31,509 nt of DNA from Candidatus Enterousia sp. (GTDB lineage Bacteria > Pseudomonadota > Alphaproteobacteria > Rs-D84): positions 1 through 31,509 of the forward strand of contig JAZLBQ010000010.1 of the NCBI GenBank assembly GCA_045613785.1, given 5' to 3'. The notes under the pieces were generated by a model, which saw nothing but the letters and a program-made list of their open reading frames with translations, was not told the origin of the DNA and searched no databases. The position numbers were made by a program, and so were the translations under genes. Below, in pieces: positions 22,916-27,757 of the stretch (within the stretch, counting starts at the first letter, position 1; every line of letters starts with the position of its first letter).

Positions 22916-23353
22916 ATGATATATAATAAAGTGCGTAGTATTTTGGAAAAATATTCAAAAGGTATGACTGTTACGCCAGATTTAAATTTGACTAATGATT
23001 TGGGGTTGGATTCAATCGATCGTGCAGAAATTGGCGTTGAATTAGAGGACTCTTTGGGCATGAAAGAGGGCGTTATTTTGCATGAAGATATGATGGGATG
23101 CCAAACTGTGCGTGATTTGGTAGTAATGCTGGAAAGCGTAAAAAAGTATTCTGAATTTAATGCTAAACAGCATGTGCCATCTGCACCAAAATATAATTTT
23201 TCACGCTTGCAGCCAAACGGAACTAGAATTTGTGTCCATACGGGAAATATCTGCAATAAAGTTACTTATTTGAGAGCAGTAGATACAAATCCAGATTTTT
23301 GTAATATTGTAAAATGTCAGGCTTTGCAGTCTTATCTACAAAAATCAAAATAA
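22916..23353 (+). CDS. Acyl-carrier-protein-like domain fused to a four-Cys C-terminal domain (145 aa)
   Basis: DLGLDSIDRAEIGVELEDSLG with Ser33 at the phosphopantetheine position and TVRDLV helix IV; then Cx6C-x15-Cx4C and a QKSK end; AAGGA RBS. Confidence 0.8.
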   Translation: MIYNKVRSILEKYSKGMTVTPDLNLTNDLGLDSIDRAEIGVELEDSLGMKEGVILHEDMMGCQTVRDLVVMLESVKKYSEFNAKQHVPSAPKYNFSRLQPNGTRICVHTGNICNKVTYLRAVDTNPDFCNIVKCQALQSYLQKSK

Positions 23354-23362
23354 TAAAAAGTT

Positions 23363-23387
23363 AAACGGGCTTTCGCCCGTTTTTTTT
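23363..23387. terminator. Intrinsic terminator between convergent genes
   Basis: AAACGGGC-TTTC-GCCCGTTT followed by a T run. Confidence 0.85.
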
Positions 23388-23396
23388 GTTTCCTTG

Positions 23397-24476
23397 TTAT
23401 TTGGTTTCGCCAATGTAAATCCCAAGGTTGTTTGCAATTTCCAATAATGGGTCGTCAGACGAAACATAGGCGTTAGATGTTTTTAGCTCAGGAATTTTAG
23501 GGTCTGAAACACATTCGCCACTTTCAAGGACTGTTGATAATGCGACAGTGTGAATTTCACCACATTCTAAGGCGGTCATAACGTAAGTTTCACCATTTTC
23601 AATCGCATTTAATGCACAGTCTGCAAAACGTGTTGCAAGAATGCGGTCAGTGGCGGTGGTGTCCCCTGCCCGCTGAGTGTGTTCAGGAAATGCTGTGCGG
23701 TTTACAATGCCGGCAGCAGTTAGTTTGCGTGAAATCATATCCGCTGGTCGGCCTGAATGACCACGTAATGAAATTCCTTCGGAAACCACAATAATCCCAT
23801 AGTCGGTGCTTGAATTGTTGATGTGCGATATCAGTTTGTTGACATCAAATTTAATTTCAGGTATTAAAATCGCTGAAGCCCCAACCGCAATTCCAGCATT
23901 TAATGCCAGTTGGCCACAATCACGCCCCATTGCCTGGACAACAAACCAACGATGATGACTGCGTGCAGTTAGCATTAGTTGATCACAAAATGATGTTAGT
24001 TGTTGCACGGCGGTATCAAATCCGATTGTGCGTTCGGTTAATGGAATGTCCAAATCGATTGTTTTTGGAATACATACCAGTTGTAAATCACGGTATAAGG
24101 AACGGTTTGCCCATGCCAGCGATAAACTGCCGTTGCCACCAATTAAAATCAATGCGTCCAAATCTAATGTTTGTAATGATTTGCGTAGTTTTTTGTTAAA
24201 TGTGTCCAGACGGCCTGTTTCAGCGGCTGTTTCGAAATTTAGTGCGTGTGCACGACCGTTGTGCAGAAAACTGCCTGCCAGGCGAGCGTTTTCAATTGGC
24301 AACATCATATCGGTTAGTTTGATTGCCGCAGGTGGTGTGATAGACAAGCCATCTGTGCCGTCAAGTATTCCATAAACTTCCCAGCCACGTAATGATGCAC
24401 CTTGCATAATTCGTTGGATTGCGGTGTTCAAACCACTGCAATCGCCACCTGTTGTCATAATTCCTATCTTTTTCAT
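23397..24476 (-). CDS. pfkA: 6-phosphofructokinase (PfkA family)
   Basis: KKIGIMTTGGDCSGLN, IGGNGS, PKTID, GFDTA, MGR, HTQRAG. Start set to the ATG at 24476 (AAGG upstream); the upstream extension of the ORF is spurious. Confidence 0.92.
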   Translation of the reverse strand: MKKIGIMTTGGDCSGLNTAIQRIMQGASLRGWEVYGILDGTDGLSITPPAAIKLTDMMLPIENARLAGSFLHNGRAHALNFETAAETGRLDTFNKKLRKSLQTLDLDALILIGGNGSLSLAWANRSLYRDLQLVCIPKTIDLDIPLTERTIGFDTAVQQLTSFCDQLMLTARSHHRWFVVQAMGRDCGQLALNAGIAVGASAILIPEIKFDVNKLISHINNSSTDYGIIVVSEGISLRGHSGRPADMISRKLTAAGIVNRTAFPEHTQRAGDTTATDRILATRFADCALNAIENGETYVMTALECGEIHTVALSTVLESGECVSDPKIPELKTSNAYVSSDDPLLEIANNLGIYIGETK

Positions 24477-24589
24477 TGTCTTCCTTGTGTTTTTCTGGAT
24501 AATTATATCATAATTAAATTGACAAAGAAATATTATTTGGAATAATTTGTCTAATCTTAAATAAAAATCAGTGTTCAGGAGTTTCTGGT

Positions 24590-25729
24590 ATGTCAAAAAA
24601 CAATATGGGTAAAACAAAACGTTCAACAGATGATATGATAAACGATGCAATCGCACAGCAAAATGACTGGCTGGAAAATCGCCGTGAATATACACGTGGA
24701 TTCTTGAAGAAGTTAAATTTGTTCGCACGACCATCAGATAAAAGCAAGGAAAATCAATCTGTGGAAAAAGCAGATATAGAAGAAGCCAGAAATCGTAAGA
24801 CTGGATTGCGTGCTTATTGGTTCCCAGTGTTGTGTGCATTGATTGTAATCTTTATTGCAATTTGGGTTATATTTATTCGTGGCACTGTTCAGCCACGGGT
24901 TATTGTTGTGCCAGCAGTGCCAGAACCTGTTGTGCAAAAAGTCAAAGAAATTACAGTGCCAGAATTTGATATTGTTCGTATCGAAAAAAACGGTAGCATA
25001 GTTATCGCAGGTCGTTGGTTGCCTCATCAGAATGTTTCTATCATGGTAAATAACAAAATTGTTGCAACTGAAAGAACAGATTATGCAGGCGAATTTGTTT
25101 ATGCACCAGCTAATGTATGGAAACCAGGAAATTATACAATCGCATTGTTGGGGGCAGAACCAGAAGTAAAATCTTCGGACAAAGTGTTTGTTTATGTGTC
25201 TGAGGCTGGTGCACAAAATTCTGTGTCGCTGCTGATGACTAAGACTGGCAGCACTTTATTGCAAGCACCTGCAATGTTGCAAGATGGTGATTTGGCTGTT
25301 TCAAAGATTGATTATCTGGATACTGGTCGTATCGTTATTACCGGGGACGGGTTGCCACGTTTGCGTGTGTCTTTGGCAATGGATGGCGAATATTTTGGAT
25401 TCGCACGTGTTTCAGATCATAAGCATTTTGGATTAGGGGCTGATGTTGGTGATTTAGTTCCAGGAAAGCAATATCAATTGGCGGTTCGTATGCATGATGG
25501 CGATGGTCGCACGGTCGCAACAGTTATGCATGAATTTGTTATGCCTGAAATGACGGGTGATGACGATACTTATTATACTGTCCGTCGTGGTGATTGTTTG
25601 TGGATTATTGCACGCAACTTTATGCGTCGTGGTGTTCTGTTTAGTATCATCGCAGAACGTAATTCAATCACAAACCCTGATTTGATTTTTCCAAAACAAA
25701 AATTACAAATCCCTGTAAGTGGAAAATAA
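24590..25729 (+). CDS. Membrane-anchored LysM-domain protein with Ig-like beta domains
   Basis: AGGAG RBS; single TM helix (WFPVLCALIVIFIAIWVIFI); PEFDIVRIE..GSIVIAGR; C-terminal YTVRRGDCLWIIAR...NPDLIFPKQKLQIP. Confidence 0.9.
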   Translation: MSKNNMGKTKRSTDDMINDAIAQQNDWLENRREYTRGFLKKLNLFARPSDKSKENQSVEKADIEEARNRKTGLRAYWFPVLCALIVIFIAIWVIFIRGTVQPRVIVVPAVPEPVVQKVKEITVPEFDIVRIEKNGSIVIAGRWLPHQNVSIMVNNKIVATERTDYAGEFVYAPANVWKPGNYTIALLGAEPEVKSSDKVFVYVSEAGAQNSVSLLMTKTGSTLLQAPAMLQDGDLAVSKIDYLDTGRIVITGDGLPRLRVSLAMDGEYFGFARVSDHKHFGLGADVGDLVPGKQYQLAVRMHDGDGRTVATVMHEFVMPEMTGDDDTYYTVRRGDCLWIIARNFMRRGVLFSIIAERNSITNPDLIFPKQKLQIPVSGK

Positions 25730-25737
25730 AAAATTGT

Positions 25738-26556: not shown

Positions 26557-26585
26557 GGTGTCTAAAAATTAAAAAATGTTGATAA

Positions 26586-26795
26586 ATGTCAGTCAAATTA
26601 CATAGTTGTCCCCATAGCGATAAGATTGTTTGCGATACAGGTTATTCTTCTAAGGAACTACGTCGTCAGATATTAGATGGTAAAGGATCTTTTGTTCGTT
26701 ATATTTATCGTATCACTACGGAATGCAGATGTAAGCCAGAATTGTGTGCCAGATTTGCAGCTTATGCAAATAGAGAGACACAGAAATCACGATAA
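26586..26795 (+). CDS. Small four-Cys protein A (69 aa, ends QKSR)
   Basis: Cx7C-x30-Cx6C-x15; same length and Cys spacing as the next gene. Confidence 0.75.
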   Translation: MSVKLHSCPHSDKIVCDTGYSSKELRRQILDGKGSFVRYIYRITTECRCKPELCARFAAYANRETQKSR

Positions 26796-26805
26796 AGGTA
26801 TAAAA

Positions 26806-27015
26806 ATGTGTGATTATTTAAATTCTTGTCCGTACGAAAGAAAGTTAGAGTGCAAAGAAACAGAACGTCATGATGAATTTTATCGTCAGATGTCAGAGGC
26901 AATGTTGGCAAATGCACCTGTTTATTTTTTAACAGGTAGTCGCTGTCCAGCAAGTTCAGTCAATTGTATTAAATTGCGTGAATATAGAGCTAGACAATTA
27001 CAAAAGCAAAGATAA
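26806..27015 (+). CDS. Small four-Cys protein B (69 aa, ends QKQR)
   Basis: AAGGT RBS, ATG at 26806; Cx7C-x30-Cx6C-x15; stop is 6 nt before the rimM ATG. Confidence 0.78.
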   Translation: MCDYLNSCPYERKLECKETERHDEFYRQMSEAMLANAPVYFLTGSRCPASSVNCIKLREYRARQLQKQR

Positions 27016-27021
27016 GATAAT

Positions 27022-27486
27022 ATGAACGAACAAAATTTGATTTTAGTTGGTAAAATCGTCGCCCCCCAGGGTATTCGTGGCGAAGTGCGTGTGCAGTCTT
27101 TTGCAGACAAACCAAGCGATTTCAAAAAACTGACGGTTCTTAGTCAGCGTTTCGGTGTCGATGATTTTGAATTTGTTCGTGTTGTTCCTAATTCAAATGT
27201 TGTAATTGCAAAAATTCGTAACGTTGTTGACCGTAATATGGCAGAAACTTTGCGTGGAACAGAATTGTTCGTTGAACGTAATTCCCTGCCCCCAGTTAAA
27301 GATGGTGAATATTATCAGGCGGACTTGATAGGTTTTTCTGTTGTTCGTGATGGTAATGTAATTGGCACTGTTTCTTGTTTTCAGAATTTTGGTGCAGGTG
27401 ATATTATCGAATTAGATAATGGGGATATGGTGTCTTTCGTTGGTGCAACGGTAGATGCAGAAAAAAGACTTATACAGGTAAGATAA
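27022..27486 (+). CDS. rimM: Ribosome maturation factor RimM
   Basis: VGKIVAPQGIRGEVRV, DRNMAETLRG, EYYQADLIG, NFGAGDIIE; operon context. Confidence 0.94.
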   Translation: MNEQNLILVGKIVAPQGIRGEVRVQSFADKPSDFKKLTVLSQRFGVDDFEFVRVVPNSNVVIAKIRNVVDRNMAETLRGTELFVERNSLPPVKDGEYYQADLIGFSVVRDGNVIGTVSCFQNFGAGDIIELDNGDMVSFVGATVDAEKRLIQVR

Positions 27487-27487
27487 A

Positions 27488-27757
27488 ATGAAAGAACAAA
27501 AAAATGATGGGTTTAGTATCGCAAGTTCTTGGGGAATGGTTGTTGTTGCTTGCCCTGCCCCAAAACCTGGGTGCAAACTGCGTCGCTATATCGCAGAAAA
27601 TCCTACTGTTGCAAAAATAATCGAAACGCCTGGTGATGATGTTATTAGTTTTCGAACACTGGGTAAAACTAATGAAATTGCTAATAAAACACCAATTTTG
27701 TATGATGTAGCCAAAGAGCTATGCGAGTTTTGTTTGCAACAACAAAAGCAAAAGTAA
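27488..27757 (+). CDS. Small four-Cys protein C (89 aa, ends QKQK)
   Basis: Starts 1 nt after the rimM stop and ends 5 nt before trmD; CPx5C ... CxxC. Confidence 0.78.
   Translation: MKEQKNDGFSIASSWGMVVVACPAPKPGCKLRRYIAENPTVAKIIETPGDDVISFRTLGKTNEIANKTPILYDVAKELCEFCLQQQKQK

Follow-up and report, generated by a model that had tools for sequence, protein, structure and literature searches.

What purpose does a common C-terminal tail serve on small cysteine-bearing proteins of different families? The question is raised by a contig of 31,509 nucleotides (contig C10, the whole of which is called the window here) from a Candidatus Enterousia genome, G000 (1,044,118 bases in 26 contigs, 41% GC, completeness 96%). 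Four open reading frames (ORFs) of the window, designated P1 to P4, end in QKx[KR] directly before the stop codon (Table 1), and they are the only ones among its ORFs of at least 40 residues to do so. An earlier note on this DNA had described these genes and their ends, correctly as it turned out, and had read them as one class of probably Zn-binding proteins without signal peptides, confined to one lineage and tagged for export, degradation or binding to a common partner. The main text of PMC12306168 describes the order Rs-D84, which includes Enterousia, as fermentative bacteria with genomes of about 1 Mb and without respiration, probable obligate symbionts or parasites that take metabolites from other cells; the words 'secretion' and 'cysteine' are absent from that main text, and titles and abstract openings of the literature on Enterousia and Rs-D84 held nothing on these proteins or on secretion. 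The evidence assembled here gives good support to the conclusion that the tail is, quite probably, a selected terminal peptide feature common to unrelated proteins. C-terminal tags of the secretion type are known; what is new is an unusually sharp motif on three new protein families.

The enrichment of the tail was measured on a greedy, non-overlapping set of 1173 ORFs that covers 93% of the bases of G000. Such sets are approximate: this one dropped P2 through overlap, so that P2 is a 16th bearer counted outside the set, and two genes of the family of P2 and P3 were missed in the set of G107, a second, complete genome of the same genus (958,618 bases, 1046 ORFs). QKx[KR]-stop closes 15 of the 1173 ORFs; its internal frequency predicts about 0.33 such ends, and C-terminal frequencies taken position by position predict 2.48 (Poisson P 6e-8). 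When all 400 dipeptides at positions -4/-3 were ranked with K or R at -1, QK came first, followed by QN (6 vs 1.2 expected) and QR (5 vs 1.1). When about 6000 pairs of residues in the last six positions were scanned without bias, -4Q/-1R headed the list in G000 (22 vs 5.7); as a positive control, the scan recovered the outer-membrane beta-signal (-3Y/-1F and -6G/-1F) in both G000 and G107. The loose motif Q[KNR]x[KR]-stop ends 26 of the 1173 ORFs of G000 (4.7 expected) and 17 of the 1046 of G107 (3.7 expected, P 3e-7), where the strict motif is found 7 times (1.9 expected). The excess is absent from contig C1 (648 kb, 653 ORFs, 31% GC) of G040, a genome from another family of the order: the strict motif occurs twice (1.2 expected), the loose one in 2 of 653 ORFs (2.0 expected), and the residue-pair scan gave no pair below P 6e-4. 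At the level of DNA, CARAARNNN followed by AAR, AGR or CGN is found 15 times in G000 at the in-frame offset adjacent to the stop, and 0 to 4 times at each of 45 other offsets. The tail is thus commoner than A-rich gene ends predict, as the earlier note required of a real feature. Its formula of Q-K-[SQ]-[KR] proved too narrow, however; QKx[KR] is enriched, and the conserved core is Q-[K/N/R]-x-[K/R]-COOH, most often Q-K-Q/T/S/V-K/R.

Table 1. Positions of the tail-bearing genes, their tail codons and the neighbouring features, in window coordinates except where a related locus is named.
Feature	Positions	Strand	Remarks
P1	22916..23353	+	145 aa, end LQKSK; acyl carrier protein (ACP) domain and C-terminal Cys module
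P2	26586..26795	+	69 aa, end TQKSR; family A; first gene after rpsP
P3	26806..27015	+	69 aa, end LQKQR; family A; tandem paralogue of P2; 6 nt before rimM
P4	27488..27757	+	89 aa, end QQKQK; family D; exact fill of the rimM-trmD gap
P1 tail codons (Q-K-S-K)	23339..23350	+	directly 5' of the stop
P2 tail codons (Q-K-S-R)	26781..26792	+	
P3 tail codons (Q-K-Q-R)	27001..27012	+	
P4 tail codons (Q-K-Q-K)	27743..27754	+	
rpsP (ribosomal protein S16)	26089..26511	+	context; first gene of the host operon
GC-rich hairpin, then T-rich tail	26531..26548	+	context; between rpsP and P2; terminator- or attenuator-like
rimM	27022..27486	+	context
trmD	27763..28449	+	context; start taken at MHFNILT
rplS	28446..28838	+	context; last operon gene; terminator-like hairpin 28859-28882 behind
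EIEYIKSL family	L030 3504-3752; L035 3708-3995; L038 3711-3977; L040 3693-3977; L051 3762-4004		

By sequence comparison, P1 to P4 are not one class, as had been proposed, and belong to three families without detectable homology, all of them confined to the genus Candidatus Enterousia. Family A includes P2 and P3, which share 25% identity with all cysteines aligned, family D includes P4, and in P1 an ACP domain is fused to a Cys module. Two Cys pairs are present in each protein, as described before: C106-x6-C113 and C129-x4-C134 in P1 (with one more Cys in the ACP part), C8-x7-C16 and C47/C49-x4-C54 in P2 (five Cys in all), C8-x7-C16 and C47-x6-C54 in P3 (with C2 in addition), and C22-x6-C29 and C79-x2-C82 in P4. 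Invariant positions are C8, P9, C16, C47 and C54 in an alignment of 23 family A sequences, C22, C29, C79 and C82 in 20 sequences of family D, and C106, C129 and C134 in the Cys module of the ACP fusion (C113 in 4 of 5). The four invariant cysteines fit metal binding, and P1 to P4 are probably zinc-binding, as the earlier note had supposed. Its claim of lineage specificity also stands. A family A profile found 84 matches among 1.84 billion representative proteins, 82 of them small proteins, and the family is present in 54 of 201 genomes of the order that were searched, all of one genus (53 of 151 other Candidatus Enterousia genomes, none of 49 genomes across 22 other genera). Family D has 15 members among 5.8 billion proteins, none with a functional name (one is a 'hypothetical protein'), and the architecture of P1 was found again in 4 of 60 other genomes of the genus at 25-59% identity. 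One of these fusions (L075 1501-1947) has DELD in place of the phosphopantetheine-attachment DSxD, and to judge from this motif it may be without a prosthetic group.

Searches for more distant relatives of these families were negative. P2, P3 and P4 gave no match to Pfam or NCBIfam at E <= 1, which includes named small zinc-finger families such as TraR/DksA C4, nor to PHROGs or PADLOC. Hidden Markov models (HMMs) of families A and D matched P2 and P3, and P4, respectively, and nothing else in G000; the match of P2 had an E of 1e-18. A common superfamily of the two was rejected on an hhalign probability of 0.1%. The family A profile found only two designed TIM-barrel proteins in the PDB (best E 0.057); the best fold match of P3 had a Foldseek E of 0.87 and a VIA Z of at most 3.5, with a top score of 0.80 in the ESM Atlas. 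For P4, Foldseek gave nothing at E <= 0.001, the ESM Atlas no usable match, and VIA a best Z of 6.8 to generic ACT- or ferredoxin-like alpha/beta folds, which is not above noise. A DNA search with P2 and P3 in 150 genomes of the genus returned partial matches only, of at most 82% identity, in 9 genomes.

It is within family A that the anchoring of the motif is best seen. When members were clustered at 50% identity, 30 of 82 representatives ended in QKx[KR] and 77 in K or R; the strict motif stood at the very end 30 times and elsewhere 5 times. Position preferences are Q at -4 (56%), K at -3 (61%), Q at -2 (50%) and K or R at -1 (94%), and from -5 upstream there is no preference for any residue. 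Among motif bearers, the last Cys is followed by a spacer of anything from 8 to 26 residues; since the motif stays at the end despite this variation, it goes with the free C-terminus rather than with the fold. Family D carries its tail directly after CxxC and keeps it more loosely (strict motif in 5 of 20), and the homologues of the ACP fusion end in KQKTK, AQKVK, RTKTK and DGKQR, with LQTTK in the nearest orthologue of P1. A RimM query yielded 55 related loci (labelled L001 and so on), nearly all from metagenome-assembled genomes (MAGs) of Candidatus Enterousia or unclassified gut Alphaproteobacteria, with ruminants, horses, birds and humans as hosts. QKx[KR] ends 22 of 142 small ORFs with at least four Cys in these loci, as against 1 of 497 other ORFs, a count that is not an independent test because the loci are kin.

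All four ORFs are real genes for small proteins. None of the four has a hydrophobic N-terminal leader, which bears out the reported lack of a signal peptide; a lipoprotein reading of P4 (VVAC before C22) was rejected, since the preceding segment is non-hydrophobic in relatives and predicted to form beta strands. The ACP domain of P1 (residues 1 to about 77) matches Pfam PP-binding (PF00550) at 26.6 bits, against a cut-off of 20.8, and has the phosphopantetheine-attachment serine motif DSID within LGLDSID; NCBIfam ACP models also match, but below their cut-offs. P1 is a monocistronic unit between terminator-like hairpins (22820-22839 and 23363-23382), with the dnaK terminator on one side and, on the other, a bidirectional terminator common to a convergent phosphofructokinase gene. 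The AlphaFold2 (AF2) models are confident: that of P3 (predicted local distance difference test, pLDDT, 82) has helices at 18-34 and 55-68 with a Cys knuckle ahead of each, and that of P4 (pLDDT 83) a beta-alpha-beta-beta-alpha layout whose long C-terminal helix, 61-88, holds both CxxC and the tail. In these models the tail is thus the end of a C-terminal helix, in agreement with the helical tail suggested earlier. Contigs of one metatranscriptomic library (X18) span 27551-27783, most of P4, with DNA carry-over possible; none lies on P2 or P3, which is not evidence of silence. Ratios of synonymous to non-synonymous codon changes (11:9 in P3, 17:16 in P4, 41:24 in rimM) are compatible, for P3 and P4, with coding genes under relaxed purifying selection.

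The tail is not limited to these families, nor to Cys proteins as the earlier note had it. Other bearers in G000 include a GNAT acetyltransferase with a C-terminal Cys extension, a 283-residue protein with an HExxH motif, a DnaJ-domain protein, a dCTP-deaminase-like protein, several orphan proteins, and a tandem pair of Cys-rich mini-proteins on contig C24 (86664-86870 and 86896-87153; 68 and 85 residues, six Cys each). The members of this pair have long C-terminal helices ending in LLQKQK and QLQKLK; HMMs relate them to neither family A nor family D, and G107 lacks homologues of them. Five other bearers gave no match to Pfam, NCBIfam, PHROGs or PADLOC. At least two Cys fall within the last 45 residues in 8 of 15 bearers, as against 249 of 1158 other ORFs (P 0.007). 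That no housekeeping protein ends in this way holds within the window but not genome-wide, where the membrane insertase YidC and thymidine kinase, along with the dCTP-deaminase-like protein, are bearers. Orthologues in G107 have similar, not identical, ends (thymidine kinase GEKTR, YidC KRINK, GNAT SQKIH), and the strict motif drifts in near relatives. The comparison of orphan with core proteins that had been proposed was positive in one direction: 13 of 17 bearers of G107 are without a homologue in G000, as against 389 of 1029 other ORFs (P 0.002), while for G000 the figures (16 of 26 against 523 of 1147, P 0.12) are not significant alone. The bearers are thus biased towards accessory genes. 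An origin in a genomic island or prophage was rejected, since core genes alternate with the bearers on contigs C12 and C7. In G107, two distant paralogues of 151 and 159 residues with few Cys (363802-364257 and 624171-624650) end in ...NGW(T/A)IN(N)QKQR and represent one more unrelated family that keeps the tail.

As the candidate reader of the tail we favour the type IV secretion system (T4SS), whose genes the earlier note had suggested looking for. G000 encodes VirB3, VirB4, VirB8, VirB9 (CagX), VirB10 (TrbI) and VirD4, all above Pfam cut-offs and scattered over at least three places (C4 71781-76443; C26 60031-62753 and 105735-107984); VirB10 has 800 residues, and VirB9 has 518 with a SPOR-like end. 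VirD4 is found in 120 of 121 genomes of the order. There was no match in G000 to the relaxase models PF03432 and PF08751, to the TrbL/VirB6 model or, at E <= 0.1, to the XVIPCD model PF20410. The four tails (QKSK, QKSR, QKQR and QKQK) are hydrophilic and net positive, without an acidic residue at the extreme end. According to PMC8740702, VirB/VirD4 substrates have a folded C-terminal domain and a Gln-rich tail with a positive extreme C-terminus, deletion of the last 6 residues of one effector drastically reduced its translocation, and comparable charged tails occur on Bartonella and Agrobacterium substrates (PMC8740702). A predicted complex of VirD4 (residues 140-749) with P3 received weak support, with a score of 0.43 against 0.00 for the best of three controls, contact agreement between runs of at least 85% and a partner pLDDT of at least 74. 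The pass mark used is one that 58 of 80 solved complexes attain and that 2 of 110 mismatched pairs attain too; with a score of 0.60 or below, it is attained by only 7 of the 80 solved complexes, and by both mismatched pairs that passed. These counts hold only roughly for VirD4 and P3, because separately made alignments were supplied for both partners.

It is possible, then, though we put this forward tentatively on the strength of analogy and modelling, that the tail is a C-terminal cargo tag for export by the VirB/VirD4 T4SS. What P1 to P4 have in common would be a short C-terminal address label, Q-[K/N/R]-x-[K/R]-COOH, at the end of a helix. The label is portable, for it recurs on further orphan proteins and on proteins in which it is joined to common enzyme domains (ACP, GNAT), and it would belong to the signal with which VirD4, the coupling protein, selects cargo for export into a partner cell. 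Either the genes belong to the rpsP-rimM-trmD-rplS operon, which is strongly expressed, or they stand singly among core genes; they are quickly gained, lost, duplicated and diversified in the manner of effector repertoires. We infer recognition by VirD4 and export, and prefer this reading because the T4SS is conserved and no relaxase was found, because the architecture of payload, module and tail is modular and the gene content accessory and fast-changing, and because a close parallel with known VirB/VirD4 tails is joined by the weak complex score. A bolder version is doubtful: that Q-[K/N/R]-x-[K/R]-COOH is a terminal sorting code, sharp and previously unknown, which Candidatus Enterousia reads through VirD4 or through an adaptor of its own and which would turn any protein, even an ACP or an acetyltransferase, into partner-cell cargo, with the ribosomal-protein operon as a high-expression nursery in which zinc-knuckle mini-effectors would duplicate, swap between strains and diversify.

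Several observations weigh against the cargo-tag reading. Its link to the T4SS consists of co-presence, analogy and one weak in-silico score. Since the T4SS is universal in the order and G040 is without tail enrichment, the motif is not a general requirement of the system. Some bearers in G000 are unlikely cargo, namely YidC, thymidine kinase and a protein with a Sec-type leader. In G107, QK at -4/-3 is not distinct from other offsets, and none of the 7 strict bearers is Cys-rich; the strict motif is also not kept in the nearest relatives of P1 (LQTTK, RTKTK). The T4SS does not readily accept proteins with a tight or zinc-stabilised fold, and a ribosomal operon is not where effector genes are usually located. 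Finally, the small operon-internal genes of relatives usually have the next ATG 0-6 nucleotides past their stop, and in 10 of 11 cases they use AGA or AGG for their last Arg (background 13%), although these genes are related and not independent. The AGR bias and the nearby ATG point to a nucleotide constraint on the same codons; in operon-internal genes, the tail codons also serve the initiation of the next gene.

The position of P2, P3 and P4 invites a different explanation, in which they are cytoplasmic mini-proteins that bind nucleic acid or the ribosome, a Zn knuckle and a basic helical tail contact RNA or DNA, the tail is the contact surface, and the genes are in this operon because they act in ribosome biogenesis or the control of translation. 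P2 and P3 separate rpsP from rimM, P4 separates rimM from trmD, which rplS follows, and four invariant Cys with a basic C-terminal helix are compatible with such a role. Small basic proteins that bind RNA include the zinc-ribbon ribosomal proteins and the KH protein that Firmicutes have in this slot, and in some bacteria YidC attaches to ribosomes by a basic tail. The slot itself, however, is highly variable. The rimM-trmD junction is tight (at most 23 nucleotides) in 13 of 54 loci and holds an insert of 120-2075 nucleotides with small genes in the other 41; small Cys ORFs number 0-6 between rimM and trmD and 0-2 between rpsP and rimM, counts that are lower bounds because the ORF set misses some small genes. 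A copy number from 0 to at least 6, with none in many relatives, and the presence of family A in 53 of 151 genomes of the genus speak against a ribosomal function. So do the conservation of a Gln-preferring terminal tetrapeptide, whatever the spacer, in place of general basicity, the occurrence of the tail in orphan genes that are not linked to the operon and in fusions with ACP and GNAT domains, and the lack of any solved ribosomal or Zn-ribbon fold above noise. We regard this explanation as unlikely.

The locus L017 (4481-6525), like L029, L030, L032, L035 and L040, has a rimM-trmD array of up to about 8 tandem small Cys-rich genes over at most 2075 nucleotides; the array genes belong to further families outside the A and D clusters, and mostly end in K or R. 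The rpsP-rimM slot of some relatives holds a Cys-free family of about 90 residues (...EIEYIKSL...; Table 1), which in one database protein (P0057, 145 residues) is fused to a family A domain. P2 shows no differences over 210 nucleotides (100% identity) from L001 3567-3776, a locus from which rpsP diverges by 5%, P3 by 11%, rimM by 17% and P4 by 16%. To judge from the sequences, this mosaic suggests recent recombination or exchange of one small gene. The hairpin between rpsP and P2, a perfect 7-bp GC stem followed by AGTTTTCTGG, is conserved in L001; as a possible attenuator or partial terminator, it might control how strongly the small genes behind it and rimM-trmD-rplS are expressed. Upstream of the operon, a tRNA-Gly (anticodon CCC) lies at 25821-25894, between a LysM-domain gene and rpsP.

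If the tail is instead a degron or an adaptor-binding tag, an AAA+ protease (ClpXP or Lon, for example) would keep the half-life of its bearers short and under regulation. Like this motif, degrons are as a rule short sequences fixed to a free C-terminus, and the ClpXP adaptor SspB is encoded in G000, convergent to VirD4. Known C-terminal ClpX signals end in non-polar residues, however (ssrA LAA, MuA-like RRKKAI), and all four tails here end in K or R with a polar residue at -2; the bearers, moreover, have no functional link with one another. This makes a degron improbable. Much the same estimate applies to a reader of some other kind, whether an enzyme that modifies the terminal Gln or Lys, a chaperone, or another export route (TolC/HlyD or a type IV pilus-like apparatus). 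The anchoring implies that something reads the free C-terminus, G000 also encodes TolC, HlyD-family proteins and a T2SSE/T2SSF/PilO set, and the VirD4-P3 prediction is itself weakly supported; yet no conserved neighbour gene stands beside the bearers, and type I signals are not basic tetrapeptides.

It remains to consider that the tail is a functionless by-product, whether because gene ends are rich in purines or in A (through the start of the following gene, or through a bidirectional terminator with its A-tract), because basic residues stabilise helix ends, or because the genes come from a common pool of horizontally exchanged cassettes. The initiation constraint described above favours this for operon-internal genes, K is enriched 3-fold at the last position of all G000 ORFs, and the identity of P2 with a relative whose rimM is 83% identical points to exchange. 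Directly behind 4 of the 16 bearers of G000 there are ordinary hairpin terminators with an A-rich 5' flank, each of different sequence. The tail, however, ends 12 of 728 ORFs without a close downstream gene, 2 of 279 with a gene within 15 nucleotides and 1 of 166 in between; from this split it follows that in G000 it is not the start region of a downstream gene, 12 of the 15 bearers in the greedy set having no close gene behind them. Together with the stop and frame anchoring, the split excludes a ribosome-binding-site by-product for G000 as a whole, and A-rich gene ends are excluded as the source by the frame and offset test and by the 31% GC genome without enrichment. A shared DNA element behind the stops, such as a miniature inverted-repeat transposable element, a cassette junction or a hairpin repeat, was rejected, since no common sequence follows the 16 stops. 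The codons of the 16 tails vary (CAA:CAG 11:5 with a background of 53% CAA, AAA:AAG 14:2 with a background of 70% AAA, and six different codons for the last residue). The earlier deduction from such synonymous variation, that selection acts on the peptide, is supported, with the qualification that in operon-internal genes the last codons also carry the start region of the next gene. With Gln at -4 preferred over the purine-only codons of K, E and R, with the tail on unrelated families, and with the tail on just 1 of 497 other ORFs of the same loci, housekeeping genes included, a by-product is the least probable of these explanations and very unlikely.

If the cargo-tag reading were true, a four-residue terminal tag would provide a simple rule for listing the cargo of a whole genus, where effector repertoires are otherwise hard to predict because type IV secretion signals are fuzzy, and the rule would point to the proteins by which uncultured gut bacteria with tiny genomes act on their partners. 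There would also be a working hypothesis for three new small Cys4 families that have neither a known relative nor a known fold. A core ribosomal operon with variable gene arrays would be an unusual means of expressing accessory genes, and a convergent terminal motif on unrelated proteins offers a clear experimental handle, even if its reader should be a protease or something else.

Compared with known systems, the operon slot recalls that of Firmicutes, where the KH-domain protein YlqC and YlqD are small accessory genes in the same rpsP-rimM interval. Those are single conserved genes with a KH RNA-binding fold; in Candidatus Enterousia the interval contains arrays of genes for Cys proteins that vary, with another such array between rimM and trmD. 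The proteins themselves resemble Cys4 zinc ribbons and knuckles (L31/L32/L33/L36, TraR/DksA, Ogr/Delta) in having 60-90 residues, two Cys pairs and a basic C-terminal part, but they match no model and no fold above noise, and three of four pairs have the spacing C-x6/7-C in place of the C-x2-C of zinc knuckles. As a signal, the tail resembles the outer-membrane beta-signal read by the BAM complex, which is likewise short, anchored at the C-terminus, carried by unrelated proteins and visible as a statistical signal across the proteome; the beta-signal, however, is aromatic and hydrophobic where the present tail is Gln-rich and basic, serves another compartment and another reader, and sits on proteins with Sec leaders, which P1 to P4 do not have. 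Close in design, too, are the VirB/VirD4 signals: in X-Tfe XVIPCD tails, Bartonella BID and Agrobacterium VirF/VirE2, as here, a hydrophilic tail rich in Gln comes after a folded module and has a positive, non-acidic extreme end, N-terminal payloads are diverse, there is a VirD4 coupling protein, and strains differ in their sets of cargo, which here are putative (PMC8740702). The modules described here are Cys4 proteins of 60-90 residues from at least three unrelated families, and not XVIPCD domains; and where the known signals are fuzzy, extending over 6-50 residues and often with a hydrophobic admixture, that of Candidatus Enterousia is a sharp motif in the last four residues.

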